Below, piece after piece: positions 11,759 to 64,000 of a DNA stretch of 64,000 bases. Under the pieces are notes generated by a model. The model was not told the origin of the DNA. It saw only the letters and a list, made by a program, of their open reading frames with translations, and searched no databases. This DNA is from Eledone cirrhosa (lineage: Eukaryota): assembly GCA_964016885.1 (NCBI GenBank), contig OZ024755.1:39308001-39372000 (forward strand), given 5' to 3'. Numbering within the stretch: the stretch's first letter is position 1; each line of letters starts with the position of its first letter. The translations under genes and the position numbers were made by a program.

Positions 11759-12075
11759 CATATGTACATATATATATATGTATTAATATAGAAAGTCGTT
11801 CTTAAATAGGAAAACAAATAGAAGTATGTGAAAAGATTTCTTCAGCTCAAAATATGAGATTTATTACAGTAAGCTATTCAGAAAGCTACATAAAATTTTT
11901 AATTGTTTGAATTCCTTGAAATGTTTACAATTTGATATCAATAACTACTATGCTTCAACCCCTATCCCTTCTAGATAAAATATTATCTTTTGCTACTAGA
12001 CTTACAGATAGAGCATAAATTAAAATTAAAATTGAAACTATTTTAGCAGTTAGAAGATGTATTATTGAATTTAAT

Positions 12076-13764
12076 TTCGGCAACTCTTTGCGGTGCTACT
12101 GCAGACATGCGAGTTAAGCGACCCTGTATCATTATGGGAGAAATACAAAGAGGACTTTTCAGATGACTACATACACCAAGGACAACTGCTACTCCCTCAT
12201 TCCGACGTACGACTCAGCGACGAATTCGTCAACAAAGCTCTCATTGACATCGAGGACAAAATCCTAACTGCCGGCGGAAATGACCTTCCATTCTATGGAC
12301 TGCCAAAAGTTCAGCGAACGGCCTCGGACAAACTTCCGACGGGCATAATTCAGGAAACTGCCTACGATCTCGAAGCCCTCGAACTGTTCATCAACGAAAA
12401 CGAGCCGAAATTGTTGCAGGACCAACGGCGGGCGTATGACACAGTTTGCACTTCCATTCGTCAACGCACAGGAGGTATCTTCTTTTTGGGCGCCCCAGGA
12501 GGAACTGGTAAAACATTCTTCAATAAACTCCTTCTCGCCAAAGTGCGACAGCAAAAAGGAATCGGCCTGGCTGTGGCTTCTTCTGGGATTGCTGCAACTC
12601 TGCTGTCCGGAGGTAGGACAGCTCATTCCGCATTTAAACTACCATTCAACACGACTTCAGACGACACAATAACCTGCAATATCACCAAGGACTCTGACAA
12701 AGCAGAAGTCTTGAAAAGATGCCAGCTAATTGTGTGGGACGAATGCACAATGGCCCATAAAGGGTCCCTTGAGGCGTTAGACAGAACCCTACGAGATATC
12801 AGGGAATGCAACCGGCCGATGGGAGGAGTACCTCTACTGCTGTCTGGCGATTTTCGACAAACTCTTCGAGTTGTTCCAAAAGCCACAAGGGCCGACACTG
12901 TGGGGGCTTGCATTAAGTCATCTCCCCTGTGGTAGGAGGTGACAATTCTGACCCTCACAACACACATGAGAGCCCAACTGCTCGGCGACCACTCATCAGC
13001 CGACTTCTCGAAGGACCTCTTAACAGTTGGTGACGGCACCGCATCTTCAGATGCAGCTGGAGAAATGGCAGTCTCGCAGGTAGGCACCGTTGTCGACACT
13101 ATTGACGACCTCACAGCCTCTGTCTTTCCTGATATGGCCATCAACTACAAAAACACGAGTTGGCTGTGCGATAGAGCCATATTGGCTCCCAAAATTGTCT
13201 CCGTTGCAAAAATCAATGAGGACCTTCTACAACGCTTTCCTGGAAACCTCCGTACCTACAAATCTGTGGACAAAGATGAGGTTGACGATTTTCCCACAGA
13301 ATTTCTCAACTCCTTGGACCTCTCTGGACTGTCACCTCATGAACTGCGCGTCAAAGTTGGGTCTCCAGTGATGCTGTTGAGGGACCTGGAACCACCACGC
13401 CTCTGCAACGGAACACGGTTGGTGGTAAGAAACCTCCTGCCACATGTAATTGAAGCCACAATTCTCACGGGCTGCGACGCTGGAGAAAACGTCTTCATAC
13501 CCAGAATACCATTAACTCCATCAGGTACGGAATGCCCCTTGTACTCTGCGCCGACTTCAATTTCCCGTTAAACTTTGCTTCGAGATGTCAATCAACAAGT
13601 CCCAAGGCCAAACGCTATCAACGGCAGGCCTCCATTTAGCCCAGTCGTGCTTCTCACACGGCCAATAATACGTCTCATGCCCAAGAGTGGGATGCAAGCA
13701 GAACTTATTCATACTTGCGCCCAAAGGCAGAACAAAAAATGTGGTCTACAGAGAGGTGTTGTGA
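12076..13764 (+). pseudogene. Helitron PIF1-family (SF1B) DNA helicase, disrupted
   Basis: Motifs GAPGGTGKT, ASSGIAA, GGRTAHS, IVWDECTM, GDFRQ, ILAP, LCNGTR and SINKSQGQT. In-frame TAG at 12933-12935 and a frameshift near 13545. Confidence 0.93.
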
Positions 13765-16864: not shown

Positions 16865-17094
16865 ATATATATATAATATAATAAGCAACATGAATTTGCA
16901 ATATCGCAGTTCGAGGATCGATATTCATTATACAAATGACACGTGTTTCGTTATCTAACAAATGAACAACTTCTAGAAACGCTAGTCCGATTAAATTGAT
17001 CGGCAAATTCAATTCATACTATTCTGGTTCATTAACCGAGACAACTCATCGCGAAAAAAACAATGTTTACATTTAAGCAAGATGATAGTGACTC

Positions 17095-18084
<990 letters not shown>

Positions 18085-18285
18085 GGACAAAATGAAAACA
18101 CACACGCACATAGAACAAACAACCAACCTGTAACATGTAAATAAACAAATAAATAAACGAATATAAAAACACACAGACACCCGGATGTGGCGCATGCGCA
18201 GACTGAGCACACAACACACACACAGAAACAAAATGGCGTAGGACAGAACAAAGGAGAGGCACAAAAACAAAGAAAAGAATCCCCA

Positions 18286-18328
18286 GTCACTGAAGAGGTC
18301 ACAGAATGTGTAACGAAAGAACTTTGAC
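18286..18328 (+). ncRNA. Minimal type I HHR in the 3'UTR of the PLE at 17237
   Basis: GTCA-CTGAAGA-GGTCACAGAATGTGTAAC-GAAA-GAAC-TT-TGAC. Confidence 0.6.
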
Positions 18329-18536
18329 AATATATAAACAACCATCCGGTTGTGGAACCAACCAACCAACGGGAAATTTATAAATTCCTCAATTTATAAA
18401 TTTATTATAATAAATTGAAGTGAAAGTTACTGGTGCGTGTGTTTCTTATTGGCAACATGACCCTCCTAAAGTATAACAATATCGGTTTCAACACACGATT
18501 TCAGATAAAGAATCTTGCTAAACAAATTCAGAAACG

Positions 18537-18606
<70 letters not shown>

Positions 18607-21584: not shown

Positions 21585-22696
21585 GTGTATATATGTGTGT
21601 AAGTGTGTGTGTTCGTTTGTGTATATGTGTGTGTGTGCTAGAGATAATATGTGGAATATAAAGGCGGTGGTGTGTGTTCGTTTGTGTATATGTGTGTGTG
21701 TGCTAGAGATAATATGTGGAATATAAAAGCGGTGGTGTGTATATATGTGTGTAAGTGTGTGTGTTCGTTTGTGTATATGTGTGTGTGTGCTAGAGATAAT
21801 ATGTAGAATATAAAGGCGGTGGTGTGTATATATGTGTGTAAGTGTGTGTATTCGTTTGTGTATATGTGTGTGTGTGCTAGAGATAATATGTGGAATATAA
21901 AGGCGGTGGTGTGTATATATATGTGTGTAAGTGTGTGTATTCGTTTGTGGATATGTGTGTGTGTGCTAGAAATAATATGTGGAATATAAAAGCGGTGGTG
22001 TGTATATATGTGTGTAAGTGTGTGTATTCGTTTGTGTATATGTGTGTGCTAGAGATAATATGTGGAATATAAAGGCGGTGGTGTGTATATATGTGTGTAA
22101 GTGCGTGTGTTCGTTTGTGTATATGTGTGTGTGTGCTAGAGATAATATGTGGAATATAAAGGCGGTGGTGTGTATATATGTGTGTAAGTGTGTGTGTTCG
22201 TTTGTGTATATGTGTGTGTGTGCTAGAGATAATGTGTGGAATATAAAGGCGGTGGTGTGTATATATGTGTGTAAGTGTGTGTGTTCGTTTGTGTATATGT
22301 GTGTGTGTGCTAGAGATAATATGTGGAATATAAAGGCGGTGGTGTGTATATATGTGTGTAAGTGTGTGTGTTCGTTTGTGTATATGTGTGTGTGTGCTAG
22401 AGATAATATGTGGAATATAAAGGCGGTGGTGTGTATATATATGTGTGTAAGTGTGTGTGTTCGTTTGTGTATATGTGTGTGTGTGCTAGAGATAATATGT
22501 GGAATATAAAGGCGGTGGTGTGTATATATATGTGTGTAAGTGTGTGTGTGTTCGTTTGTGTATATGTGTGTGTGTGCTAGAGATAATATGTGGAATATAA
22601 AGGCGGTGGTGTGTATATATGTGTGTAAGTGTGTGTGTTCGTTTGTGTATATGTGTGTTTGTGCTAGAGATAATGTGTGGAATATAAAGGCGGTGG
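21585..22696 (+). repeat. About 87-bp tandem repeat (about 13 copies) abutting a SINE head at 22689-22800
   Basis: CTAGAGATAAT recurs at 22049, 22136, 22223, 22310, 22397 and onward. Confidence 0.93.
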
Positions 22697-33481: not shown

Positions 33482-33494
33482 ATATATTTATATA

Positions 33495-34680
33495 ATTAAG
33501 TTAAAAATGTACATCTACATATGCATACTGAAATACTAGTATGCATATGAATACACACACGTATACATATGTAGAGGTACCAAGTCTTTCACTGGTTACT
33601 TTACTGTGAGTATCCAGCTATTCTGTATGTAAACACACAGACAAACCGGTTTTTAGAGTCATACTGGTTTTTGAGGAAACACCTTTCCTCTATTCTCCAG
33701 AAAGCCAGACAAGGAATATTGAACTAGTTTCGTTGTTGTTACAACTCATCAGCAATATTTACCTATCTACCGGCCTTTCTGGAGAATCGTAAAAGCACAT
33801 ATCGTTATATGCTTTTTCTATGAAAATTAGTAGTGGGCAGACTAATTTGCATAGAGTGTGAGTACGTACCGGTTCAACGGAGACGATAAAAACAAATAAC
33901 GAAACGAAATTAAATTTCGTTTCGTTTGTAACTCACTTTTTTATGACTGACGCTTAAACAATTAAGTTAAAAATGTACATCTACATATGCATACTGAAAT
34001 ACTAGTATGCATATGAATACACACACGTATACATATGTAGATGTACCAAGTCTTTCACTGGTTACTTTACTGTGAGTATCCAGCTATTCTGTATGTAAAC
34101 ACACAGACAAACCGGTTTTTAGAGTCATACTGGTTTTTGAGGAAACACCTTTCCTCTATTCTCCAGAAAGCCAGACAAGGAATATTGAACTAGTTTCGTT
34201 GTTGTTACAACTCATCAGCAATATTTACCTATCTACCGGCCTTTCTGGAGAATCGTAAAAGCACATATCGTTATATGCTTTTTCTATGAAAATAACGATA
34301 TGTGCTTTTACGATTCTTCAGAAAGGCCGGTAGATAGGTAAATATTGCTGATGAGTTGTAACAACAACGAAACTAGTTCAATATTCCTTGTCTGGCTTTC
34401 TGGAGAATAGAGGAAAGGTGTTTCCTCAAAAACCAGTATGACTCTAAAAACCGGTTTGTCTGTGTGTTTACATACAGAATAGCTGGATACTCACAGTAAA
34501 GTAACCAGTGAAAGACTTGGTACATCTACATATGTATACGTGTGTGTATTCATATGCATACTAGTATTTCAGTATGCATATGTAGATGTACATTTTTAAC
34601 TTAATTGTTTAAGCGTCAGTCATACAAAAGTGAGTTACAAACGAAACGAAATTTAATTTCGTTTCGTTATTTGTTTTTAT
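33495..34680. mobile_element. Non-coding tandem 466-nt HHR-bearing repeat (candidate retrozyme) with inverted arm
   Basis: Direct repeat 33495-33960 / 33961-about 34292, inverted arm about 34295-34680, three identical HHRs, and no ORF. Confidence 0.85.
34341..34385 (+). ncRNA. Type I HHR; identical minus-strand copies at 33715-33759 and 34181-34225
   Basis: AATATTG-CTGATGA-GTTGT(AACA)ACAAC-GAAA-CTAG-TT-CAATATT: 7-bp stem I, 5-bp stem II and palindromic stem III. Confidence 0.9.
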
Positions 34681-36754: not shown

Positions 36755-37375
<621 letters not shown>

Positions 37376-37386
37376 ATATATATATA

Positions 37387-37840
37387 TACGATATTAATAA
37401 ATGGAAACTATATTTATAAAACCATATTTATTTCATTATACATATTTCAGGGATACCACATTAAATTATGGTATGCCTTCATCAGATCAAATACAATATA
37501 TAACAGTTTTACGAATAGCTTTGACGTACCCTTTTAAAATACAACCATTACTTTTGGAGGTGGTCTGGATATCCAGACAGCCTCCAAAAGTAATGGTCGT
37601 ATTTTAAAAGGGTACGTCAGAGCTATTTGTAAAACTGTTATATATTGTATTTTATCTGATGAAGGCATACCATAATTTAATGTGGTATCCCTGAAATATG
37701 TATAATGAAATAAATATGGTTTTATAAATATAGTTTCCATTTATTAATATCGTATATCTACTCCAAAAACTTGTCGAGTGCTTTATATTAGTTATAAAAA
37801 TATTTACTTGTTGTATCCCAACAACTTTAAATAGAACTTT

Positions 37841-37844
<4 letters not shown>
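37387..37844. mobile_element. Family A near-perfect palindrome (centre 37570/37571) with HHRs at 37430-37492 (-) and 37649-37711 (+) and an approximately 90-nt tail
   Basis: Mirror ORFs at 37401-37607 and 37534-37740, centre GGATATCC, and (TA)n flanks. Confidence 0.88.
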
Positions 37845-37929
<85 letters not shown>

Positions 37930-38630
37930 TTATATATATATTTATATATATATATGTATATTTATATATTTATTTAAATGAAGTAATTCCGTCGGAAAAG
38001 TCCAGGAAAAAAGAATGCTCTATGTAGGTAACAGAGCTTAATATCCACGTTCGGTACTCTTGTATTCTCTTTCTCCCTTATCTCCCCTCATATTTAAACC
38101 TTTTCCTGTGTAATTTTACCGCTCCTTTCCCCCCCTATTTTTTTGCCTTACCCTTCACATACCAACATTTTTTTATTTTTAGATATTAATTTTTATATAA
38201 TGGTTTTGTGTGTTTTTATATAATAGCCTCGAAAAGACTTGAGCTCTGCCGTAGGGGCAGGGTTCTTCCTATGTGTGTATATATATATATACGTTTTTGT
38301 ATGTGTGTTTGTATTTCTGTGGTTGGGGTTTTTTGTGTGTGTGTGTGTATGTATATATATTTATATGTGTTCTTGTGTGTATTTGTATATGTATATATGT
38401 ATAAGGGTGTATGTATGTGCATCATTTTAAATAGTGATTTGATGATTATTTTCATTGATCTTTTGCTCCATGAACTTGTTGAGTGCTCTAGGTCTGCTAT
38501 GGGCATTTATACCCTTTTCTAAATATATATATATTTTTATTTATTATTTGTCGTATACCAAAATTTTTTTTATATATAAAATATTTATTTTATAATATTT
38601 ATGTTCTTTCTCATATATATATATATATAT

Positions 38631-40922
38631 ATAATATAAGATCAAAAGATGGTTAAAGGAGTTCCATATATTTTATTATGCGCATTTCAAAAACAAACAT
38701 AATCAAGCAATAATATTTGTGTTTTCATCAGATAAAACAGGAGAACATGATATGAAGGCTAAAAAACGCTTGTGGATAGTGCAGTTTTAAATCAACATAT
38801 GAAAAGTGGTTTTAGATTGATGTGTGATATTGGGAAAAATATTTTATTTAGAGAGGGGGGGGAAAGGATGAAAAGGGAAGGAGATGAGAGGGAGAGATGG
38901 GTGATAGAGAGAAAGAGATAGTTTTTATAACTGAGAGGAGATATATTTTTTACATAGAGGGGTTGAAAACCGTTGGAAGATACTGTATAAATTAAAAATT
39001 TTGAAAATTAACGAAGGGAGGATATGTGCGAGGAAAAAATATTTTATTTATGGAGGGGGGGGAGGATGAAAAAAAGGGGGAGGAGATGAGAGTGAAGGTG
39101 GAGAGGGAGAGATGGGTGATAGAGAGAAAGAGATAGTTTTTATAACTGAGAAAAAGATATATTGTTTTAATATAGAGAGGTTGGGAACCGTTGGAAGATA
39201 ATGTATAAATTAAAGGAATTTGAAAATTAACGAAGGGAAATTATGTATGAAGATAGAGAGAAAAAAATAATAATTGTGGGTGAATATTCTAACGTCAAAA
39301 GAAGAAATGTATGTATTGTGGCAATCTCAAAATTAGCGAAGAGAAAAATTGTTAAGGTTTGTGTGTAGAAGGATTTGAGAAAAATAATGTGAAGTTAAAG
39401 TTTGTATATTGAATTGATAATATGTGCGAATAAAGAGTTAATATGTATTAATAATGAGTTCGTTGATGGGGAGAAAAAAAATAATAATAAATTAAGGATG
39501 AAATTGAGATTGAAAAGATTTATGATAGAGAGAAAAAATAATAATGATTGCGGATGAATATTCAAAATGTCAAAAACAAATGTTATTATTTTACGAGAAG
39601 ATAGAATGAGGGTAATGAGTAAACGAGTATTATAGAGTGTATAATGCCCTTTAAAGTAAGGTAGATGGGTATATTTTAAAGAGGTGTATGTATATGTGCC
39701 TTTGAGAAAAGATTCTAAATTGATAAAGAATTGAATATTAACTGTATACTTTGTGAAAAGTTCTATGGAATTTATGCAGGCAGATAGAAAACAAATCTGA
39801 GAGTCTATTTATTATAGAATCTAGGTTAGAGATAATGGTAAATTTTTCATTTAGGCAGAGATTACAGATTTTAGATAGAGAGCTGTTCAAGTATGAGGAT
39901 GCAGAAGAAATCTTCTTCCAAAAGATGGTATATTTAATGTTTTTGTCTTTTAAGGACCATATGAGTTCTGAGAGAGCAGTGTTAGTTCTTTTAAGTTTGT
40001 ATTTGAAAGATGAATGATGATTATAGAGACGAGCTTTAAAAGAGGTGGAAGTGGAGCCAAAATAGGTGAAGGAATTGGTGCTAGTTATAATTTTACATTC
40101 ATAAATTAAGTTTTTATCGAGGCAATGGTTGTTGAGAGGACATTTATTTTTAATGCGGCAGTTGCAATTAGAGAGATTATTAATGAGTGATCTAGTGTTA
40201 TCTATAGAAGGAATTGGATTGGAGAAGTTGTTTGCGATAGGAATAATAGGAATAATAGTTTCTTGATTTAGAGTTGGATTATGAACATTTAGCGAAGTTG
40301 TGTTTGACGTTGTATTTGGGTTTACAGAAGTTAGCCTAGGGTTTACAATGACGTCGGGAGTACTATTACTGTTATTATGAAATTCAATATTGGAAGGAAG
40401 AGATTTAGTATTTAATATTTTGTTGTTGTGTTTTCCTCGCACATATCCTCCCTTCGTTAATTTTCAAAATTTTTAATTTATACAGTATATTCCAACGGTT
40501 TTCAACCCCTCTATGTAAAAAATATATCTCCTCTCAGTTATAAAAACTATCTCTTTCTCTCTATCACCCATCTCTCCCTCTCATCTCCTTCCCTTTTCAT
40601 CCTCCCCCCCCCTCTCTAAATAAAATATTTTTCCCAATATCACACATCAATCTAAAACCACTTTTCATATGTTGATTTAAAACTGCACTATCCACAAGTG
40701 TTTTTTAGCCTTCATATCATGTTCTCCTGTTTTATCTGATGAAAACACAAATATTATTGCTTGATGATGTTTGTTTTTGAAATGCGCATAATAAAATATA
40801 TGGAACTCCTTTAACCATCTTTTGATCTTATATTATGCATACTCCAGTCACACAAACTGTAGAGTGCTTCTTATCCGATATCTGCATTGCTTTATTGTAC
40901 TACAATAAAACTCACCTCCTAC

Positions 40923-40923
<1 letters not shown>
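38631..40923 (-). mobile_element. 5'-truncated PLE (family B): inverted arms 38631-39037 and 40431-40836, tail 40837-40923, HHRs at 38671-38737 (-) and 40730-40796 (+)
   Basis: About 406-bp inverted repeat enclosing a GIY-YIG ORF, with (TA)n flanks. Confidence 0.9.
39738..40430 (-). pseudogene. PLE GIY-YIG endonuclease domain (Neptune-like CxC..CPL..C linker), 5'-truncated but open
   Basis: CNCRIKNKCPLNNHC, NLIYECKI, YFGSTSTSFKARLYNH, TALSELIWSLK, CNLCLNEK. Confidence 0.9.
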
Positions 40924-41000
<77 letters not shown>

Positions 41001-41124
41001 TACACATATATATATATATATATGTGTGTGTGTTTGTATTTGGTTGTGCGTGTTTGTCATATATACGTATTTGTATGTGTATAATTGTATGGCTATGTAT
41101 GCATGTGTGTGTATATATATATAT

Positions 41125-41264
<140 letters not shown>

Positions 41265-41711
41265 ATTTATATATGTATATGTGTGTGTGTATGTATTTGT
41301 GGTTACGTATGTATGTGTTTATGTATTTGTATATGTATATTTATGTGTGAGAGTGTGTATGTATTTATGTTTGCGTATGTATGTGTACGTGCATTTGTGT
41401 GTATTGCTTACCACGTGTGTTTTTTCATTTACTTGTTGCCTGTATCGCTGTCAACTTTATAATAGTCTTTATTTTTCTTTTTTGTATTTTATATTTTTTC
41501 TTATATTTATTTGCGTGTGTGAATATGTAGGGGTGTGTGTATATTTTTCTAATTTTGTATATGCATATGTATGCATGTATATATGTGTGTATGGATGTGT
41601 ATGTATGTGTATGTATGTACGTGTGTATATACGTATGATTGTGTGTATGTATGTATGTATGTATGTATATGTATGTGTGTATAGCTATGTATGTGTATGT
41701 GTATGCATATA

Positions 41712-41744
<33 letters not shown>

Positions 41745-41823
41745 ATATATATGTATTTATATATATATATATGTATGTATATATATATATATATATGTAT
41801 GTATATATATATATATATATATG

Positions 41824-41882
<59 letters not shown>

Positions 41883-41930
41883 ATATATATATATATGTAT
41901 GTATATATATATATATATGTATGTATATAT

Positions 41931-43550
41931 AATATATAAGAACAAAAGATGGTTAAAAGAGTTCCATGTATTTTATTATGCGCATTTCAAAAACAAATAT
42001 CATTATGCAATAATATTTTTGTTTTCATCAGATAAAACAGGAAGACATGATATGAAGGTTAAAAAACACTTGTGGATAGTGCAGTTTTAAATCAACATAT
42101 GAAAAGTAGTTTTAGATTGATGTGTGCTATTGGGAAAAATATTTTATTTTGAGGGGGCGGGGGGTTGGAAAGGATGAAAAAGACGAGGAGATGAGAGTAA
42201 AAAGTGGAGAGGGAGCAGTATAATGAGGAAGGAGGAGATAGGAGGACAGATGGGTGATAGAGAGAGAGAGATAGCTTTTATAACTGAGAAAGATATATTG
42301 TTTTACATAGAGAGGTTGAAAACCGTTGGAAGATAATGTATAAATTAAAAGAAAATTAACGAAGAGGAAAATAATGTAAAGTTAAGGTTTGTATATTGAA
42401 GGGTTTAATAATATGTGCGATGAAAAGAAAATGTTAATATGTATTAAGAATAATATTTAAGGGTTTAATAATATGTGCGATGGAAAGAAAAAGTTAATAT
42501 GTATTAAGAATAATATTTAAGGGTTTAATAATATGTGCGATGGAAACAAAATGTTGATATGTATTATTAAAAAGAACACCTGGTAATTTAAGTAAGGATA
42601 TATTGTGAGATGAGCATGAATAAGTTAGATGAAGGGGAGAAAAGATTAATGAATTGAGGATGAATAATCTAACGTCAAAAAAATGTTTATGTTTACGAAG
42701 GATTTTTACAAGGTGATATAGAGTAAGAATGTATTGTATTATGTAATAATTGTTTCTATGTTAGGCAACAGTGAGAAAAGGTACAGATTAGGGGTTAGAC
42801 ATTAAAAGAAAAAGAGAAGAAAGGGAAGTGATAAATAGGAGCGATATAGAATGAGTAACAAGTATTATAGAATGAGTAACAAGTATTATATAATGTATAA
42901 TAAAACTTTGAAATAAGGTAGAAAGATGGGTATATTTTTAAAGAAGTGTATATATATGTGCCTTTGAGAAAAAGATTCTAAATTGATAAAGTTTTGGATA
43001 TTAGCTGTATATTTTGTGGAATGTTTTGTGGAATTTATGCAATTCTTTTAATTTATACATTATCTTCCAACGGTTTTCAACCTCTCTATGTAAAACAATA
43101 TATCTTTCTGTTATAAAAGCTATCTCTCTCTCTCTCTATCACCCATCTCTCCTCCTAACTCATCCTTCCTCATTATACTCCTCCCTCTCCACTTTTTACT
43201 CTCATCTCCTCGTCTTTTTCATCCTTCCCCCCCCCCCCCCTCAAAATAAAAAATTTTCCCCAATATCACACATCAATCTAAAACTACTTTTCATATGTTG
43301 ATTTAAAACTGCACTATCCACAAGTGTTTTTAACCTTCATATCATGTCTTCCTGTTTTATCTGATGAAAACACAAATATTATTGCATGATGATATTTGTT
43401 TTTGAAATGCGCATAATAAAATACATGGAACTCTTTTAACCATCTTTTGTTCTTATATATTATGTATACTCCAGTCCTACAAACTGTAGAGTGCTTCTTA
43501 TCCGATATCTGCATTGCTTTATTGTACTACAATAAAACTCACCTCCTACA
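41931..43550 (-). mobile_element. Family B PLE remnant: arms about 41931-42353 and 43043-43462, tail to 43550, HHRs at 41971-42037 (-) and 43355-43421 (+)
   Basis: The spacer holds the last codons LHKFHKTFHKIYS* (43001-43042, minus strand), matching the end of the 39738 ORF. Confidence 0.88.
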
Positions 43551-44714: not shown

Positions 44715-45460
44715 GACAAGGCCAGCAATTACCCAGTGCATTACTGGTTCTTTATTTTATCGAGGGTAGGTCCTTAGAGTAATAACTGTTTCTACTTTTG
44801 GCACAAGGCCAGCAATTACCCAGTGCATTACTGGTTCTTTATTTTATCGAGGGTAGGTCCTTAGAGTAATAACTGTTTCTACTTTTGGCACAAGGCCAGC
44901 AATTACCCAGTGCATTACTGGTTCTTTATTTTATCGAGGGTAGGTCCTTAGAGTAATAACTGTTTCTACTTTTGGCACAAGGCCAGCAATTACCCAGTGC
45001 ATTACTGGTTCTTTATTTTATCGAGGGTAGGTCCTTAGAGTAATAACTGTTTCTACTTTTGGCACAAGGCCAGCAATTACCCAGTGCATTACTGGTTCTT
45101 TATTTTATCGAGGGTAGGTCCTTAGAGTAATAACTGTTTCTACTTTTGGCACAAGGCCAGCAATTACCCAGTGCATTACTGGTTCTTTATTTTATCGAGG
45201 GTAGGTCCTTAGAGTAATAACTGTTTCTACTTTTGGCACAAGGCCAGCAATTACCCAGTGCATTACTGGTTCTTTATTTTATCGAGGGTAGGTCCTTAGA
45301 GTAATAACTGTTTCTACTTTTGGCACAAGGCCAGCAATTACCCAGTGCATTACTGGTTCTTTATTTTATCGAGGGTAGGTCCTTAGAGTAATAACTGTTT
45401 CTACGTCAGGCACAAGGCCAGCAATTACCCAGTGCATTATTGGTTCTTTATTTTATCGAC
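44715..45460 (-). repeat. 87-bp tandem array (8 full units plus one) made from a SINE 3' region
   Basis: CACAAGGCC recurs at 44802, 44889, 44976, 45063, 45150, 45237, 45324 and 45411. The array is continuous with the adjacent SINE. Confidence 0.95.
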
Positions 45461-47805: not shown

Positions 47806-47877
<72 letters not shown>

Positions 47878-47881
<4 letters not shown>

Positions 47882-48962
47882 TGATAAATTAACGGAGCCA
47901 TAGAAACTCGCCATTCCCTGTAAATAGTGTGCTCAAAGGAGAAGAGATACTGAGCTCTTTAAAATACAATATGTTGAAAAGGTAACAAACCAGAGAGAGA
48001 TATATAGTGCGTTATCAATAATACAGGGAAAAAACCACCAGTGTACAGAATCTATAAACTATGACAGGCAGACTATAGACACGATAATTAAAAATATAAA
48101 TTAAAGCGTAAATAAATACCTCTATAAGTGACAGTCACTTTTAAAATTCTCTTATTGTTGTCTGAAATGTATAGCCTTACACACGCTGATGAACCGAGGT
48201 TACTCCATTTCTGTCAACAAATTACTGGCGAAACATCTCTTTGGATTTGTACGTGTGTTATATAGTTAAAGAGGTATTTATTTACGCTTTAATTATATTT
48301 TTAATTATCGTGTCTATAGTCTGCCTTTCATAGTTTATAGATTCCATACACTGGTGTTTTCCCTGTTTTATTGATAGCGCACTGTATATCTCTAGTGTGT
48401 TAATTTTTCAACATATTATATTTTAAAGAGCTCAGGATTTCTTCTCCTTTGAGCACATTATTTACAGGGAATGGCGAGGTTCTATGGCTCCGTTAATTTA
48501 TCGTGATATTTCGCTCCTTATAACAGTCTTTCCTATCTCTCTGTTTGGTTGAGCACACTTCTCTGAGTCGTTTTGGGCTGCCCTTTCGAGCAGCACGTCT
48601 CTCAGAGGCCACTGGTTCACTGTCCTTAAACACGCTGTGACTTCTCTCTCCCACGTGTAGCTGGACAGTCACTTTTAAAATTCTCTTAGTGTTGTCTGAA
48701 ATGTATCGCCTTACACACGCTGAGGAACCAAGGTTATTCCATTTCTGTCAACAAATGACTGGCGAAACAGATCTCTTTGGATTTGTACGTGTGTTATATA
48801 GTTATAGAGGTATTTATTTACGCTTTAATTTATATTTTTAATTATCGTGTCTATAGTCAGCCTTTCATAGGTTATAGATTCCATACACTGGTGGTTTTTT
48901 CCCCTGTTTTATTGATAGCGGACTGTATATCTCTAGTGTGTTACCTTTTCAACATATTGTAT
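47878..48962 (+). mobile_element. Non-coding tandem 534-nt HHR-bearing repeat (candidate retrozyme) with inverted 5' arm
   Basis: Direct repeat starting at 48130 and 48664. 47878-48127 is the reverse complement of about 48265-48508. Confidence 0.85.
48713..48794 (+). ncRNA. Type I HHR; second copy at 48179-48258
   Basis: ACACACG-CTGAGGA (CTGATGA in the other copy)-stem II-GAAA-CAGATCT..GGATTTG-TA-CGTGTGT, with a perfect 7-bp stem I. Confidence 0.85.
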
Positions 48963-49032
48963 TATATATATATATATATATATTTTATAAAGAAAACGAA
49001 AAATCAGTGATGCATCTAGACTTAGTTTATTG

Positions 49033-49985: not shown

Positions 49986-51480
49986 GATAGAGGAAGGGAG
50001 AGAAAGAGAAAGAGATAGTGTGGTGTGAGAGGATTTGTATAGGGAGGGGGAGGAGGGATGTGTGCTAAAAGTTGTGATGAGTAGAGGGAGAGAGAAGGAA
50101 GATAGAATTTTAAGAGGCATTTGGAAGTGGACAGGCGAAAGTCTTACCAGAGAACAGATGAAGGAAGAAAGTATTAAATTTCATATATAGTCTATTTTTA
50201 GGGGTGTAGAATTGTTATTTAGGGTAGAAAGATAGGTAGTGTTAGGATTTGATTGAAGGTTTGAAGTGTGAGAATTTCGCTTTCAGTTTATGCTGGCAAA
50301 AAATTGACCTTTCAATGTTGTTGTTGAGTAGTTGGTGGCTTGAGCTTAGAATATGGAAGAGCTCATTATTACACAACGGGCACGTTTTCATCCCACTCCG
50401 GTATGGAGGAGCATGTGAGAGTTTGGTCCATTTAAGGGTGTATTGTCGGTTACTCCCTTTTAAGTGCCAAATTTTGTCGGCGAGAGTCGTTACGTAACGG
50501 TGGTGGTGGTGCTTTATTGCGTAACGATGCGTGTACCAACGAGTTTTGAAGGTGTTTGCAGTGCTGCCTATGTAGTACCAGGTTTGGTTGCCCGACTCAA
50601 CCGAGCACCTGTATACTAGGTTTGAATGCAAACATTCGTTATTCAATGGACAAGTCTCTGGAAGGTGACAATTACAATTTCTGTTATGGGCAGTGGTGGA
50701 GTTATAGGTGTGCTGGGATGTGTGTGTGAGTGTGTTTTGTGCATACTGATTGTTAGTGGGTGGTTGTGTATTAGGTGTATTATTGTGTTGAGCGATTGGG
50801 GTGTTGTTGTTACGGAGTTTTTTGGCGTTGAGCATCTTAATGTGTGCATCTAGGTTTGGTGCAGTGGAATAAGATAGTCTAATTGTTTTGGTATTAAGTA
50901 TACTACTATATTTATGTGAATTTGGAAAGTGTTTTTTTATAATTTTGTAGAATGTGGAGGTAAGTTAGAGCTAATAGAAGAGTTAAAAATAGGATTATAC
51001 CAAATGTAAGATCTACTCCGTGTTCTGTTTTGCTTTGATGTTGCTGTTGTATTTGTGGTGTGGTTAGTATTAGGGGGTCTAGGTGCGTGTGTGCGGGTGT
51101 TTGTGCGGCGTTTGGCGTGTCTGTAGTTATGTGTTTTATGGTTGTGTGGGTCCATGTATTCTAGTTTTTCGGTGTGGCCAGCCCGTTCTAATGCAGTTTT
51201 GTAGTATTCAGCGTGTTGATCGAATATTTGTTGGTTAGATGAGAGGCGGGATATTCTAAGTGATATGCTATGTGGCACGGACCTTATAATAGATAGTGGG
51301 TGGTTAGAGCTAGTGTGGATGTAGGTGAGGTTCTCGTTGTTTTTGTGAAAGGGTGTGATAATTTGGGTGTTGAGGTTGAAGGTGGCATCTAGGAAGTTAA
51401 CTACTTTGGTACTATATTCGTAGGTGATTTTAAGGCCAAGGCTATCTAGGGTTCTTCTAATGCTCTTTTGGCATATAGTT
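49692..51480 (-). mobile_element. 5'-truncated PLE (RT thumb, GIY-YIG and 3'UTR with HHR at 49742-49844)
   Basis: Coding fragment described below, plus a downstream HHR next to (TA)n. Confidence 0.88.
50242..51480 (-). pseudogene. PLE RT C-terminus and GIY-YIG (Neptune-like), frameshift near 50935
   Basis: VVNFLDATFNL, YIHTSSNHP, RISRLSS, IWYNP.F, CNC..CPL..C, LVYRC..YYIGST..FKTRW..H, CPLCNNE. Confidence 0.92.
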
Positions 51481-51968
51481 GAATAGTTTAAGAGAAATTT
51501 GAAGATAATTGTAAGATATGCACTCAATATTGTGAATTTGTCTACAGAATTCTCTAAACCTTTGTCACTTAGTAGAACCTTAATGAATTTAGCTTTTAAA
51601 GAATCTCCCTTTCCTTTAAATCTATCTACCATGACTGACCCCCCACTGATCTTATAGACACCTGTTAGCTGAAGAGAAACTTAATAATAAGGAGTGGCAT
51701 GCCATCCTGAACCTGTTTATAGAATTCTGTCTGCCTTTGTTACTCTAAAAACAAAAATAAATAAAAATAAACTATAGCTTTGTAGAATTAGCTATTAATG
51801 AATTCCCTTTTCTATCAACCAATGACCTACACCCATCCCACTCGCCACCCTCCCCTACCACTTGTAGAGACCTATAAATACCATACTTATTTTTTGATAC
51901 CCAGATTCCTGATGATTTCTAAAGAATGAAAGAGTTCTAGTCTTGTAGAATCTCATCTATATTAAAAC

Positions 51969-52506: not shown

Positions 52507-55500
52507 TAATACACTAACAACACTACCTGTCACACTGACAACACTACCTGACACACTAACAACACTACCTGACACACTAACAACACTACCTACCACACTA
52601 ACAACACTACCTGACACACTAACAACACTACCTGACACACTAACAACACTACCTGACACACTAACAACACTACCTGACACACTAACAACACTGCCTGACA
52701 CACTAGCAACACTACCTACCACACTAACAACACTACCTGCCACACTAACAACACTACCTACCACACTAACAACACTACCTGACACACTAACAACACTACC
52801 TACCACACTAACAACACTACCTGACACACTAACAACACTACCTACCACACTAACAAAACTACCTGACACACTAACAACACTACCTACCACACTAACAACA
52901 CTACCTGACACACTAACAACACTACCTACCACACTAACAACACTACCTGACACACTAACAACACTACCTGACACACTAACAACACTACCTGACACACTAA
53001 CAACACTACCTGACACACTAACAACACTACCTGACACACTAACAACACTACCTGACACACTATCAACACTACCTGACACACTATCAACACTACCTGACAC
53101 ACTAACAACACTACCTGACACACTAACAACACTACCTGACACACTAACAACACTACCTGACACACTAACAACACTACCTGACACACTAACAACACTACCT
53201 GACACACTATCAACACTACCTGACACACTAACAACACTACCTGACACACTAACAACACTACCTGACACACTATCAACACTACCTGACACACTATCAACAC
53301 TACCTGACACACTAACAACACTACCTACCACACTAACAACACTACCTACCACACTAACAACACTACCTGACACACTAACAACACTACCTGACACACTAGC
53401 AACACTACCTACCACACTAACAACACTACCTGACACACTAACAACACTACCTACCACACTAACAACACTACCTGACACACTAACAACACTACCTACCACA
53501 CTAACAACACTACCTGACACACTAACAACACTACCTGCCACACTAACAACACTACCTACCACACTAACAACACTACCTGACACACTAACAACACTACCTA
53601 CCACACTAACAACACTACCTGACACACTAACAACACTACCTACCACACTAACAACACTACCTGACACACTAACAAAACTACCTGACACACTAACAACACT
53701 ACCTACCACACTAACAACACTACCTGACACACTAACAACACTACCTACCACACTAACAACACTACCTACCACACTAACAACACTACCTGACACACTAACA
53801 ACACTACCTGACACACTAACAACACTACCTGACACACTAACAACACTACCTACCACACTAACAACACTACCTGACACACTAACAACACTACCTGACACAC
53901 TATCAACACTACCTGACACACTATCAACACTACCTGACACACTAACAACACTACCTACCACACTAACAACACTACCTGACACACTAACAACACTACCTGA
54001 CACACTAACAACACTACCTGACACACTAACAACACTACCTACCACACTAACAACACTACCTGACACACTAACAACACTACCTGACACACTATCAACACTA
54101 CCTGACACACTAACAACACTACCTGACACACTAACAACACTACCTGACACACTAACAACACTACCTGACACACTAACAACACTAACTACCACACTAACAA
54201 CACTACCTGACACACTAACAACACTACCTGACACACTAACAACACTACCTACCACATTAACAACACTACCTGACACACTAACAACACTACCTGACACACT
54301 AACAACACTACCTGACACACTATCAACACTACCTGACACACTAACAACACTACCTACCACACTAACAACACTACCTACCACACTAACAACACTACCTGAC
54401 ACACTAACAACACTACCTGACACACTAACAACACTACCTGACACACTAACAACACTACCTACCACACTAACAACACTACCTGACACACTAGCAACACTAC
54501 CTTACACACTAACAACACTACCTGACACACTAACAACACTACCTGACACACTAACAACACTACCTGACACACTAACAACACTACCTATCACACTAGCAAC
54601 ACTACCTGACACACTATCAACACTACCTGACACACTAACAACACTACCTACCACACTAACAACACTACCTGACACACTAACAACACTACCTGACACACTA
54701 ACAACACTACCTGACACACTAACAACACTACCTATCACACTAACAACACTACCTGACACACTAACAACACTACCTGACACACTAACAACACTACCTGACA
54801 CACTATCAACACTACCTGACACACTAACAACACTACCTACCACACTAACAACACTACCTGACACACTAACAACACTACCTACCACACTAACAACACTACC
54901 TGACACACTAACAACACTACCTACCACACTAACAACACTACCTGACACACTAACAACACTACCTACCACACTATCAACACTACCTGACACACTAACAACA
55001 CTACCTGACACACTAACAACACTACCTGACACACTAACAACACTACCTACCACACTATCAACACTACCTGACACACTAACAACACTACCTGACACACTAA
55101 CAACACTACCTGACACACTAACAACACTACCTGACACACTAACAACACTACCTACCACACTAACAACACTACCTGACACACTAACAACACTACCTACCAC
55201 ACTAACAACACTACCTGACACACTAACAACACTACCTACCACACTAACAACACTACCTGACACACTAACAACACTACCTACCACACTAACAACACTACCT
55301 GACACACTAACAACACTACCTACCACACTATCAACACTACCTGACACACTAACAACACTACCTGACACACTAACAACACTACCTGACACACTAACAACAC
55401 TACCTGACACACTAACAACACTACCTACCACACTAACAACACTACCTGACACACTAACAACACTACCTACCACACTAACAACACTACCTGACACACTAAC

Positions 55501-58500
55501 AACACTACCTACCACACTATCAACACTACCTGACACACTAACAACACTACCAGACACACTAACAACACTACCTGACACACTAACAACACTACCTGACACA
55601 CTAACAACACTACCTACCACACTAACAACACTACCTGACACACTAACAACACTACCTACCACACTAACAACACTACCTGACACACTAACAACACTACCTA
55701 CCACACTAACAACACTACCTGACACACTAACAACACTACCTGACACACTAACAACACTACCTGACACACTAACAACACTACCTACCACACTAACAACACT
55801 ACCTGACACACTAACAACACTACCTACCACACTAACAACACTACCTGACACACTAACAACACTACCTACCACACTAACAACACTACCTGACACACTAACA
55901 ACACTACCTGACACACTAACAACACTACCTGACACACTAACAACACTACCTACCACACTAACAACAGTACCTGACACACTAACAACACTACCTACCACAC
56001 TAACAACACTACCTGACACACTAACAACACTACCTACCACACTAACAACACTACCTGACACACTAACAACACTACCTGACACACTAACAACACTACCTGA
56101 CACACTAACAACACTACCTACCACACTAACAACACTACCTGACACACTAACAACACTACCTGACACACTAACAACACTACCTGACACACTAACAACACTA
56201 CCTACCACACTAACAACACTACCTGACACACTAACAACACTACCTGACACACTAACAACACTACCTGACACACTAACAACACTACCTGACACACTAACAA
56301 CACTACCTGACACACTAACAACACTACCTGACACACTAACAACACTACCTGACACACTAACATCACTACCTGACACACTAACAACACTACCAATCACACT
56401 AACAACACTACCTGACACACTAACAACACTACCTGACACACTAACAACACTACCTGCCACACTAACAACACTAGCTATCACACTAACAACACTACCTGAC
56501 ACACTAACAACACTACCTGACACACTAACAACACTACCTGACACACTAACAACACTACCTGACACACTAACAACACTACCTGACACACTAACAACACTAC
56601 CTGACACACTAACAACATTACCTGACACACAAACAACACTACCTGACACACTAACAACACTAGCTATCACACTAACAACACTACCTGACACACTAACAAC
56701 ACTACCTGACACACTAACAACACTACCTGACACACTAACATCACTACCTGACACACTAACAACACTACATGACACACTAACAACACTACCTGACATACTA
56801 ACAACACTACCTGACACACTAACAACACTACCTGACACACTAACAACATTACCTGACACACAAACAACACTACCTGACACACTAACAACACTAGCTATCA
56901 CACTAACAACACTACCTGACACACTAACAACACTACCTGACACACTAACAACACTACCTGACACACTAACAACACTACCTGCCACACTAACAACACTACC
57001 TGACACACAAACAACACTACCTGACACACTAACAACACTACCTGCCACACTAACAACACTACCTGAAACATTAACAACACTACCTGACACACTAACAACA
57101 CTACCTGAAACATTAACAACACTACCTGACACACTAACAACACTACCTGACACACTAACAACACTACCTACCACACTAACAACACTACCTGACACACTAA
57201 CAACACTACCTGACACACTAACAACACTACCTGACACACTAACAACACTACCTGACACACTAACAACACTACCTGACACACTAACAACACTACCTGACAC
57301 ACAAACAACACTACCTGACACACTAACAACACTACCTGAAACATTAACAACACTACCTGACACACTAACAACACTACCTGACACACTAACAACACTACCT
57401 GACACACTAACAACACTACCTGACACACTAACAAAACTACCTGACACACTAACAACACTACCTGACACACTAACAACACTACCTGACACACTAACAACAC
57501 TACCTACCACACTAACAACACTACCTGACACACTAGCAACACTACCTGACACACTAACAACACTACCTGACACACTAACAACACGACCTGACACACTAAC
57601 AACACTACCTGACACACTAACAACACTACCTGACACACTAACAACACTACCTGCCACACTAACAACACTACCTGACACACAAACAACACTACCTGACACA
57701 CTAACAACACTACCTGAAACATTAACAACACTACCTGACACACTAACAACACTACCTGACACACTAACAACACTACCTGACACACTAACAACACTACCTG
57801 ACACACTAACAACACTACCTGACACACTATCAACACTACCTGACACACTATCAACACTGCCTGACACACTAACAACACTGCCTGACACACTAACAACACT
57901 ACCTGACACACTAACAACACTACCTGACACACTATCAACACTACCTGACACACTAACAACACTACCTACCACACTAACAACACTACCTACCACACTAACA
58001 ACACTACCTGACACACTAACAACACTACCTGACACACTAACAACACTACCTGACACACTAACAACACTACCTACCACACTAACAACACTACCTGACACAC
58101 TAGCAACACTACCTGACACACTAACAACACTACCTGACACACTAACAACACTACCTGACACACTAACAACACTACCTGACACACTAACAACACTACCTAT
58201 CACACTAGCAACACTACCTGACACACTATCAACACTACCTGACACACTAACAACACTACCTACCACACTAACAACACTACCTGACACACTAACAACACTA
58301 CCTGACACACTAACAACACTACCTGACACACTAACAACACTACCTATCACACTAACAACACTACCTGACACACTAACAACACTACCTGACACACTAACAA
58401 CACTACCTGACACACTATCAACACTACCTGACACACTAACAACACTACCTACCACACTAACAACACTACCTGACACACTAACAACACTACCTACCACACT

Positions 58501-61500
58501 AACAACACTACCTGACACACTAACAACACTACCTACCACACTAACAACACTACCTGACACACTAACAACACTACCTACCACACTAACAACACTACCTGAC
58601 ACACTAACAACACTACCTACCACACTATCAACACTACCTGACACACTAACAACACTACCTGACACACTAACAACACTACCTGACACACTAACAACACTAC
58701 CTGACACACTAACAACACTACCTACCACACTAACAACACTACCTGACACACTAACAACACTACCTACCACACTAACAACACTACCTGACACACTAACAAC
58801 ACTACCTACCACACTATCAACACTACCTGACACACTAACAACACTACCAGACACACTAACAACACTACCTGACACACTAACAACACTACCTGACACACTA
58901 ACAACACTACCTACCACACTAACAACACTACCTGACACACTAACAACACTACCTACCACACTAACAACACTACCTGACACACTAACAACACTACCTACCA
59001 CACTAACAACACTACCTGACACACTAACAACACTACCTGACACACTAACAACACTACCTGACACACTAACAACACTACCTACCACACTAACAACACTACC
59101 TGACACACTAACAACACTACCTACCACACTAACAACACTACCTGACACACTAACAACACTACCTACCACACTAACAACACTACCTGACACACTAACAACA
59201 CTACCTGACACACTAACAACACTACATGACACACTAACAACACTACCTACCACACTAACAACAGTACCTGACACACTAACAACACTACCTACCACACTAA
59301 CAACACTACCTGACACACTAACAACACTACCTACCACACTAACAACACTACCTGACACACTAACAACACTACCTGACACACTAACAACACTACCTGACAC
59401 ACTAACAACACTACCTACCACACTAACAACACTACCTGACACACTAACAACACTACCTGACACACTAACAACACTACCTGACACACTAACAACACTACCT
59501 ACCACACTAACAACACTACCTGACACACTAACAACACTACCTGACACACTAACAACACTACCTGACACACTAACAACACTACCTGACACACTAACAACAC
59601 TACCTGACACACTAACAACACTACCTGACACACTAACAACACTACCTGACACACTAACATCACTACCTGACACACTAACAACACTACCAATCACACTAAC
59701 AACACTACCTGACACACTAACAACACTACCTGACACACTAACAACACTACCTGCCACACTAACAACACTAGCTATCACACTAACAACACTACCTGACACA
59801 CTAACAACACTACCTGACACACTAACAACACTACCTGACACACTAACAACACTACCTGACACACTAACAACACTACCTGACACACTAACAACATTACCTG
59901 ACACACAAACAACACTACCTGACACACTAACAACACTAGCTATCACACTAACAACACTACCTGACACACTAACAACACTACCTGACACACTAACAACACT
60001 ACCTGACACACTAACATCACTACCTGACACACTAACAACACTACATGACACACTAACAACACTACCTGACATACTAACAACACTACCTGACACACTAACA
60101 ACACTACCTGACACACTAACAACATTACCTGACACACAAACAACACTACCTGACACACTAACAACACTAGCTATCACACTAACAACACTACCTGACACAC
60201 TAACAACACTACCTGACACACTAACAACACTACCTGACACACTAACAACACTACCTGACACACTAACAACATTACCTGACACACAAACAACACTACCTGA
60301 CACACTAACAACACTAGCTATCACACTAACAACACTACCTGACACACTAACAACACTACCTGACACACTAACAACACTACCTGACACACTAACAACACTA
60401 CCTGCCACACTAACAACACTACCTGACACACAAACAACACTACCTGACACACTAACAACACTACCTGAAACATTAACAACACTACCTGACACACTAACAA
60501 CACTACCTGACACACTAACAACACTACCTACCACACTAACAACACTACCTGACACACTAACAACACTACCTGACACACTAACAACACTACCTGACACACT
60601 AACAACACTACCTGACACACTAACAACACTACCTGCCACACTAACAACACTACCTGACACACAAACAACACTACCTGACACACTAACAACACTACCTGAA
60701 ACATTAACAACACTACCTGACACACTAACAACACTACCTGACACACTAACAACACTACCTGACACACTAACAACACTACCTGACACACTAACAACACTAC
60801 CTGACACACTATCAACACTACCTGACACACTATCAACACTGCCTGACACACTAACAACACTGCCTGACACACTAACAACACTACCTGACACACTAACAAC
60901 ACTACCTGACACACTAACAACACTGCCTGACACACTAACAACACTACCTGACACACTAACAACACTGCCTGACACACTAACAACACTACCTGACACACTA
61001 GCAACACTACCTGACACACTAACAACACTACCTGACACACTAACAACACTACCTGACACACTAACAACACTACCTGACACACTAACAACACTGCCTGACA
61101 CACTAGCAACACTACCTGACACACTAACAACACTACCTGACACACTAACAACACTGCCTGACACACTAACAACACTACCTGACACACTAGCAACACTACC
61201 TGACACACTAACAACACTACCTGACACACTAACAACACTACCTGACACACTAACAACACTACCTGACACACTAACAACACTGCCTGACACACTAGCAACA
61301 CTACCTGACACACTAACAACACTACCTGACACACTAACAACACTGCCTGACACACTAACAACACTACCTGACACACTAGCAACACTACCTGACACACTAA
61401 CAACACTACCTGACACACTAACAACACTACCTGACACACTAACAACACTACCTGACACACTAACAACACTGCCTGACACACTAGCAACACTACCTGACAC

Positions 61501-64000
61501 ACTAACAACACTACCTGACACACTAACAACACTACCTACCACACTAACAACACTACCTGACACACTAACAACACTACCTACCACACTAACAACACTACCT
61601 GACACACTAACAACACTACCTGACACACTAACAACACTACCTGACACACTAACAACACTACCTACCACACTAACAACACTACCTGACACACTAACAACAC
61701 TACCTACCACACTAACAACACTACCTGACACACTAACAACACTACCTACCACACTAACAACACTACCTGACACACTAACAACACTACCTGACACACTAAC
61801 AACACTACATGACACACTAACAACACTACCTACCACACTAACAACAGTACCTGACACACTAACAACACTACCTACCACACTAACAACACTACCTGACACA
61901 CTAACAACACTACCTACCACACTAACAACACTACCTGACACACTAACAACACTACCTGACACACTAACAACACTACCTGACACACTAACAACACTACCTA
62001 CCACACTAACAACACTACCTGACACACTAACAACACTACCTGACACACTAACAACACTACCTGACACACTAACAACACTACCTACCACACTAACAACACT
62101 ACCTGACACACTAACAACACTACCTGACACACTAACAACACTACCTGACACACTAACAACACTACCTGACACACTAACAACACTACCTGACACACTAACA
62201 ACACTACCTGACACACTAACAACACTACCTGACACACTAACATCACTACCTGACACACTAACAACACTACCAATCACACTAACAACACTACCTGACACAC
62301 TAACAACACTACCTGACACACTAACAACACTACCTGCCACACTAACAACACTAGCTATCACACTAACAACACTACCTGACACACTAACAACACTACCTGA
62401 CACACTAACAACACTACCTGACACACTAACAACACTACCTGACACACTAACAACACTACCTGACACACTAACAACACTACCTGACACACTAACAACATTA
62501 CCTGACACACAAACAACACTACCTGACACACTAACAACACTAGCTATCACACTAACAACACTACCTGACACACTAACAACACTACCTGACACACTAACAA
62601 CACTACCTGACACACTAACATCACTACCTGACACACTAACAACACTACATGACACACTAACAACACTACCTGACATACTAACAACACTACCTGACACACT
62701 AACAACACTACCTGACACACTAACAACATTACCTGACACACAAACAACACTACCTGACACACTAACAACACTAGCTATCACACTAACAACACTACCTGAC
62801 ACACTAACAACACTACCTGACACACTAACAACACTACCTGACACACTAACAACACTACCTGACACACTAACAACATTACCTGACACACAAACAACACTAC
62901 CTGACACACTAACAACACTAGCTATCACACTAACAACACTACCTGACACACTAACAACACTACCTGACACACTAACAACACTACCTGACACACTAACAAC
63001 ACTACCTGCCACACTAACAACACTACCTGACACACAAACAACACTACCTGACACACTAACAACACTACCTGAAACATTAACAACACTACCTGACACACTA
63101 ACAACACTACCTGACACACTAACAACACTACCTACCACACTAACAACACTACCTGACACACTAACAACACTACCTGACACACTAACAACACTACCTGACA
63201 CACTAACAACACTACCTGACACACTAACAACACTACCTGCCACACTAACAACACTACCTGACACACAAACAACACTACCTGACACACTAACAACACTACC
63301 TGAAACATTAACAACACTACCTGACACACTAACAACACTACCTGACACACTAACAACACTACCTGACACACTAACAACACTACCTGACACACTAACAACA
63401 CTACCTGACACACTATCAACACTACCTGACACACTATCAACACTGCCTGACACACTAACAACACTGCCTGACACACTAACAACACTACCTGACACACTAA
63501 CAACACTACCTGACACACTAACAACACTGCCTGACACACTAACAACACTACCTGACACACTAACAACACTGCCTGACACACTAACAACACTACCTGACAC
63601 ACTAGCAACACTACCTGACACACTAACAACACTACCTGACACACTAACAACACTACCTGACACACTAACAACACTACCTGACACACTAACAACACTGCCT
63701 GACACACTAGCAACACTACCTGACACACTAACAACACTACCTGACACACTAACAACACTGCCTGACACACTAACAACACTACCTGACACACTAGCAACAC
63801 TACCTGACACACTAACAACACTACCTGACACACTAACAACACTACCTGACACACTAACAACACTACCTGACACACTAACAACACTGCCTGACACACTAGC
63901 AACACTACCTGACACACTAACAACACTACCTGACACACTAACAACACTGCCTGACACACTAACAACACTACCTGACACACTAGCAACACTACCTGACACA
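52507..64000. repeat. 21-bp satellite (ACACTAACAACACTACCTGAC), about 545 units, running off the window end
   Basis: Directly visible, with 7-aa periodicity, no net frameshift over 11.5 kb, and higher-order duplications. Confidence 0.98.

Follow-up and report, generated by a model that had tools for sequence, protein, structure and literature searches.

Animal non-LTR retrozymes were defined by Cervera and de la Peña in 2020 (PMC7229834), who named Penelope-like elements (PLEs) as their likely carriers, and Li et al. in 2026 (bioRxiv 10.64898/2026.07.22.740005) argued from pLTR homology that retrozymes are non-autonomous PLE derivatives and reported cleavage in one of nine. PLEs carry hammerheads themselves, and circular templates have been proposed for them (PMC4209133), while self-priming has been proposed as the origin of their inverted arm (PMC3846280). 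Frangieh (2024; PMC11167929) described two internal start sites of reverse transcription that bound the PLE tail, predicted a protein dimer and reported a start site without a difference between the strands. Non-autonomous Chlamys elements such as MRC1 (PMC8557442) represent a further type of non-coding PLE passenger with multicopy head-to-tail insertions. In a literature search whose scope excluded most subscription papers, we found neither a counted rule of one end site per arm nor a test for a common template of both arms.

The window analysed here is a stretch of 64,000 nucleotides from Eledone cirrhosa (contig OZ024755.1, positions 39,308,001 to 39,372,000). Based on the sequence, self-comparison and alignment, it contains at 47876-48962 an element that consists of an inverted arm placed head-to-head with 1.55 tandem monomers and that lies within (TA)n. 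The left microsatellite (47808-47879) has 36 units, and its last 4 nt are common to the end of the inverted arm, which occupies 47876-48127 on the minus strand and corresponds to monomer positions 137-380 (position 1 is set at 48130). A central junction of 2 nt (48128-48129) separates it from the plus-strand arm, composed of a non-coding first monomer of 534 nt with 38% G+C (48130-48663) and a partial second monomer (48664-48962; positions 1-292), which is followed by the right (TA)n microsatellite (48963-48982). The element contains two hammerhead motifs of type I, from 48179 to 48258 and from 48713 to 48794. Their starts are 534 bp apart and the predicted cuts lie after 48251 and 48787; the predicted RNA between these two GUA ends has 536 nt. 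The spacing of the motifs and the (TA)n on either side were as described in an earlier reading made from the sequence only. The same reading had seen no credible open reading frame (ORF), and the longest ATG-initiated ORF lying wholly within the element indeed encodes 46 amino acids. Since no reverse transcriptase plus GIY-YIG ORF is present, the element is not an autonomous PLE. A tRNA gene search, the scope of which does not extend to degenerate Pol III boxes, detected no tRNA gene in the element; a tRNA-derived SINE was rejected on this basis and because two fixed ends and permuted tandems were found instead of one fixed 3' end.

The element is a further family of a known kind, namely a non-LTR retrozyme that behaves like a non-autonomous PLE. 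It shares with the described animal non-LTR retrozymes the non-coding monomers arranged in tandem, each with one type I hammerhead, the low G+C content, the lack of an LTR, the dispersed high copy number and the co-occurrence with PLEs (PMC7229834; bioRxiv 10.64898/2026.07.22.740005). With about 540 nt, the monomer is larger than the 170-400 nt given in PMC7229834 and lies within the 51-972 bp given in bioRxiv 10.64898/2026.07.22.740005. Unlike the known retrozymes as these sources describe them, it has a stem III that is long and a stem II that begins with A·C or A-U, and its link to PLEs is provided by the insertion footprint, whereas Li et al. drew it from pLTR homology. Endonuclease-containing (EN+) PLEs (Neptune, Poseidon and Naiad; PMC8557442, PMC11167929, PMC3846280) likewise show partial tandems, an inverted arm in head-to-head orientation, insertion into (TA)n, a one-sided tail and a hammerhead upstream of two end sites, but in contrast to them the element has no ORF. 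The Chlamys elements are similar to an autonomous partner in their 3' ends and are described as a clade without canonical hammerheads (PMC8557442); the retrozyme differs in both respects, as no such partner was found in the loci sampled.

A second hammerhead family is present in the window at 33488-34680. This 466-nt family shows the same head-to-head design, its arms end about 68 nt apart and its units are about 99% identical and hence younger. The sequence-only reading had regarded the two families as unrelated, which agrees with a similarity at chance level (best E 0.36) and with the observation that a profile of the family of the 534-nt element matches only that element within the window. 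It had also noticed that the two monomers of the 534-nt element differ; in an alignment of 292 positions, we counted 13 substitutions and 7 gap letters. Its suggestion of an older insertion did not stand, as 11 of 263 non-polymorphic sites differ (4.2%) and this is close to the mean of 3.4% for tandem pairs of the family, which makes the age of the copy ordinary. The differences between its two monomers are mostly post-insertion decay.

Every tandem unit carries a type I hammerhead motif with core, GUA and three stems. The Rfam models gave no hammerhead match in the window element, neither at the gathering score nor at E<=10, so that the recognition of the motif depends on the stems and the consensus of the core. 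Both window motifs contain the 7-bp stem I and the GUA cleavage site that had been claimed for them. The hairpin stem III was present as such in the downstream motif (7-8 bp), while that of the upstream motif is short by 2 nt. 'Extended', the word previously chosen for stem II, overstates it, since in both motifs three pairs under an A·C mismatch at 10.1-11.1 are followed by a long, weakly folded loop. The usual hammerhead pair at this place is G10.1-C11.1, and changes there slow cleavage. Compared with the predicted ensemble, the hammerhead fold is higher by 4.9 kcal/mol in the 48713 motif and by 9.4 kcal/mol in the 48179 motif. Monomeric cleavage, as proposed earlier, would be possible on architectural grounds because stem III is a real hairpin, in comparison to one pair and a palindromic loop in the 466-nt family. 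For this particular copy it appears doubtful, since A·C opens stem II and stem III of the upstream motif is shortened. As the release of a monomer requires both cuts, the copy is a poor candidate source.

To describe the motif across the family, 154 motifs from 120 loci were surveyed, of which 146 could be parsed. GUA was found in 136/146 and a full stem I in 114/146, both figures being inflated because the sample was picked partly with a 23-mer that covers those letters. The pair 10.1-11.1 was A·C in 66/146 and A-U in 74/146 motifs. A·C mostly accompanies a long stem III and is retained in distant sister lineages, so it does not represent local decay. Across 40 diverse copies, in the selection of which core letters played a part, pairing amounted to 93.5% in stem I, 74.2% in stem II and 91.7% in stem III. 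Covariation in the hammerhead stems was not significant in these 40 copies (48 of 500 shuffles reached the score), and the consensus fold of 38 monomers contained one-sided changes only.

The sequence-only reading had proposed a genome-wide census and held that a lack of other tandem copies would point to a one-off local duplication. In the host genome of 3.0 Gb, we found more than a thousand copies at dispersed locations, many of them forming short tandem arrays, which supports the retrozyme interpretation. Exact matches to the 23-mer over the cleavage site numbered at least 1,153 (reversed control: 0), and a looser core pattern gave 1,447 matches. A search with the monomer, in which 40 of 2,886 candidates were scored, yielded 149 matches, most of which lie in tandem and which are 80-100% identical to it. 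The copies are spread over many chromosomes in arrays of one to about six units, and full monomers from 38 loci measure 534-545 nt, mostly 539-543 nt. Twenty divergent matches to the core pattern all belonged to one non-coding repeat with the same ends, none of them tied to an ORF. Short non-coding tandem repeats ranging from dimers to multimers, no LTR and a G+C content under 50% are the retrozyme traits found throughout. In three sequencing runs of one sample, which may be that of the assembly itself, a passage from the monomer into (AT)n at 48509 was seen in 25, 16 and 21 contigs; contigs cannot show circles. At nine loci (L015, L037, L044, L046, L049, L060, L081, L082 and L092), the retrozyme is embedded in another repeat with shared flanks and was amplified together with it as a unit. 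The composite repeat at L081 and L082 is arranged in tandem with a spacing of about 3 kb; three matches about 3 kb apart on contig C1, considered as a full-length PLE, were recognised as this kind of larger composite repeat.

The most informative feature of the element had been overlooked in the sequence-only reading. It had noted that the inverted arm extends about 85 nt beyond the plus-strand copy. We measured 88 nt, as the inverted arm ends at position 380 and the plus arm at position 292. Since these positions are two fixed sites (see below), the overhang corresponds to the 88-nt segment between them, i.e. the PLE 'tail', which is contained within monomer 1 at 48422-48509. Hereafter, position 292 is referred to as the short and position 380 as the long end site; both follow the predicted cut, at distances of 170 and 258 nt. 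The tail is longer than the 30-40 bp described for EN+ PLEs.

Arm ends were determined at 120 loci, consisting of 39 best-scoring matches and 81 of the first 100 23-mer matches on contig C1; overlapping duplicates and the composite repeat at L081/L082 were left out, and two loci on C1 are assigned to the first set. Loci of the C1 set were taken in order of position, on condition that their 23-mer is intact. Loci L139-L148 served for a motif scan only. Among 199 outer 3'-type ends, 174 were located at one of the two sites, 84 at the short (284-297) and 90 at the long one (372-380). Besides 41 one-armed loci, there were 79 two-armed insertions, with 58 that combine a short with a long end, one with two short ends (locus L047, checked), none with two long ends and 20 with an end elsewhere, several of these owing to later insertions. 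Thus, one end of each kind was used in 58 of the 59 two-armed insertions with both ends at the sites (binomial p 2e-16), and in 44/44 of the C1 set alone (binomial p 1e-13). The papers on EN+ PLEs, as far as their text is concerned, describe a tail that is 'often' or 'optionally' present at one end. The longer arm was either one of the two in equal proportions (29 vs 29). The insertion target is (TA)n or an AT-rich microsatellite across the copies, and the flanks of the 58 insertions have only other repeats in common.

We then compared this pattern with coding PLEs of the same genome. GIY-YIG queries served to sample two families (A and B), a minority of the PLE families present. Both families have two end sites in (TA)n, with spacings of about 40 and 58 nt. 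By hand count, 13 of 14 head-to-head loci of family A had one short and one long end and 1 had other ends, while the 16 loci of family B comprised 12 with one of each, one with two long ends (L201) and 3 others. The rule therefore holds in 25/26 insertions of coding PLEs (A 13/13, B 12/13). Family A contains an intact ORF of 875 amino acids (L223:1451-4078, minus strand), the start codon of which is located inside the tail, and a fragment of the family gave RVT_1 and GIY-YIG matches. Its copies are 95-99% identical in the endonuclease region, which indicates recent activity. No sequence similarity to the monomer was found in family A or B. An autonomous PLE with ends homologous to the monomer was detected neither in 60 loci of the two PLE families nor in 30 GIY-YIG loci or 20 divergent hammerhead loci, so that a helper PLE is indicated by the footprint only. 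One of 138 loci (L092) contained a PLE ORF fused to the monomer. A template switch was rejected as explanation, because the ORF ends in a small fold-back, its continuation is not the one seen in the normal family and the composite repeat provides the right flank; we take the junction as a secondary fusion. A monomer fragment near a GIY-YIG match at L233 is a separate insertion in (TA)n.

Several other remnants were observed in the window. At 16995-18540 lies a truncated PLE with a C-terminal GIY-YIG domain that belongs to family B. This family is large, has two sites in (TA)n at which its copies end, and shows a minimal hammerhead-like motif that precedes the short end by about 157 nt. PLE-like endonuclease/reverse transcriptase remnants are found on the minus strand at 39738-40463, with a weak GIY-YIG match, and at 50242-51680, judged by eye and without Pfam support; other hammerhead-like motifs lie near the minus-strand PLE remnants (37170-43361 and 51909). 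Another hammerhead-like family with an AT-rich stem I and some inverted pairs occurs at 1773, 25102, 25958, 26087 and 37656. Furthermore, the window contains a PIF1 helicase remnant, probably a Helitron fragment (12075-13571), 87-bp arrays at 21670-22696 and 44716-45459, and a long tandem array with a 42/189-bp period that reaches the window end (52511-64000).

In order to compare the origin of the arms, 39 polymorphic columns of the monomer were analysed. In 26 loci in which the arms overlap sufficiently, opposite arms of an insertion differed at 6.3% of these columns, compared to 42% between loci (p 1.5e-7), and adjacent tandem units differed at 3.8% versus 42.5% between loci (81 pairs). Monomers of one locus hence do not stem from different subfamilies; within an insertion, one sequence variant is common to both arms and to every tandem unit, which indicates one template source. 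Rare alleles in common amounted to 2.1 per kb for arms, 2.7 for tandem units and 0.1 between loci, while unshared rare alleles were equally frequent in arms and tandem units (about 25 per kb), from which we conclude that arms and units began alike and decayed later. This fits one RNA or sister RNAs of one source, and a circle or a uniform linear multimer alike. The window copy is an exception to the one-variant rule, as its arms differ at 3/7 polymorphic columns. The differing columns fall into a patch of the inverted arm (positions 238-265) that matches another subfamily and would derive from gene conversion or a second RNA.

A spread at the DNA level by unequal crossover, segmental duplication or carriage in another repeat, as in a satellite or local duplication, was considered as an alternative. 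An array with three identical inner units and a differing outer unit (L020), two loci resembling a duplicated locus (L022 and L026) and the copies inside another repeat with shared flanks speak for such events. Unrelated flanks, fixed 3' ends combined with variable 5' ends, (TA)n targets and the distribution over many chromosomes are the footprint of retrotransposition, and DNA-level spread is refuted as the main route; as an explanation of the element we regard it as highly improbable.

The inverted arm could alternatively result from fold-back self-priming of a single cDNA, with the tail arising by endonuclease resolution, as proposed in PMC3846280 and PMC8557442. One arm is contained in the other in 42/58 insertions, near-symmetric central junctions are more frequent than expected (11/80 vs 3.1), and a copied arm would share variants just as two arms primed on one template. 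Neither arm lies within the other in 16/58 insertions, two of which are borderline, so in about 14/58 the arms cannot be copies of each other. At two loci the arms do not even overlap (106-292 with 295-380 at L052; 89-292 with 319-380 at L130), and the even distribution of the longer arm over both sides likewise speaks against this route. One arm is therefore not always a fold-back copy of the other and two primings are needed. Fold-back as the sole route is excluded by the non-nested arms and we consider it unlikely as the general explanation, but it may account for a minority of insertions.

At the central junctions, the arms overlapped by 1-17 nt in 47/80 cases, 21 of which showed an overlap of only 1-2 nt, as expected by chance. 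Arms did not preferentially stop at the start site of the other arm (3 and 5 of 160 vs 3.3 expected); such an enrichment might have been seen with a shared circle, and its absence is evidence against the PLE model outlined below. Run-off at the ribozyme cut was also considered. While 13 of 160 arm starts fell at 123-140 compared to 5.4 expected, 10 lay just upstream as well, and because the comparison is post hoc, run-off is not claimed. An observation of the same post hoc kind is a hotspot of arm 5' ends at positions 236-250, seen at many loci (19/160 vs 4.5 expected). Its position coincides with the base of a predicted hairpin, a little upstream of the short end site.

Taken together, we consider the window element a decayed copy of a high-copy non-LTR retrozyme that was likely inserted into (TA)n by a PLE reverse transcriptase-endonuclease, and assign this interpretation a probability of roughly 0.75. 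According to the proposed mechanism, a tandem copy would be transcribed, and its hammerheads would cut the transcript, which could then be closed into a circle of about 540 nt. A PLE protein dimer would bind the tail region and nick both strands of the (TA)n target. Priming would take place at site 292 for one strand and at site 380 for the other, with either a single RNA or sister RNAs from one source copy as template. Each of the cDNAs may extend past one monomer, and the two cDNA ends would finally be joined head-to-head by microhomology, followed by gap filling. Whether the rule of one short and one long end is obligatory, meaning that a PLE dimer with one subunit per start site of one RNA primes both nicked strands and the cDNAs are joined head-to-head, is in our estimation an even bet. 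Besides the missing enrichment of stops, we count against the PLE model the lack of a PLE with homologous ends in the loci searched, the non-significant stem covariation, the exceptional window copy, and the single insertions with two short and two long ends, respectively.

Alternatively, the same PLE machinery could use a linear multimeric read-through transcript, with a hammerhead that is slow, protein-dependent or dispensable, so that no circle would be needed. The frequent A·C at the base of stem II (66 of the 146 parsed motifs) and the hammerhead fold not being the predicted ground state are in line with this, as is the predominance of arms shorter than two monomers. From the literature, it can be added that an anole PLE ribozyme cut only in the presence of protein and was not needed for insertion (PMC11167929), and that eight of nine Xenopus retrozymes showed no cleavage in vitro (bioRxiv 10.64898/2026.07.22.740005). 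In contrast, GUA and full stem I are retained at the frequencies given above, inflated as they are by the 23-mer selection, and sister lineages that are distant from the family still have the core. As would be expected for a single monomer template, tandem units moreover have rare alleles in common and some arrays are almost uniform, and the circular monomer folds better than its shuffles (z -3.5). We regard a linear template as a tenable but less probable explanation.

The value of these insertions lies in a large natural data set on two questions that the cited papers leave open, namely which machinery moves animal retrozymes and how tandem and inverted PLE insertions with a one-sided tail arise. 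A two-site, one-RNA model would be directly testable in vitro, since the non-coding RNA is short, has sharply mapped start sites at two positions and a long tail, and the genome also contains an intact PLE ORF. The part worth following is the strict end rule, which is shared by the retrozyme and two coding PLE families. If the rule is obligatory, a single model would account for the inverted arm and the one-sided PLE tail and replace self-priming as the main route, and, if the interpretation is correct, PLE machinery would be identified by its footprint as the carrier of animal retrozymes.
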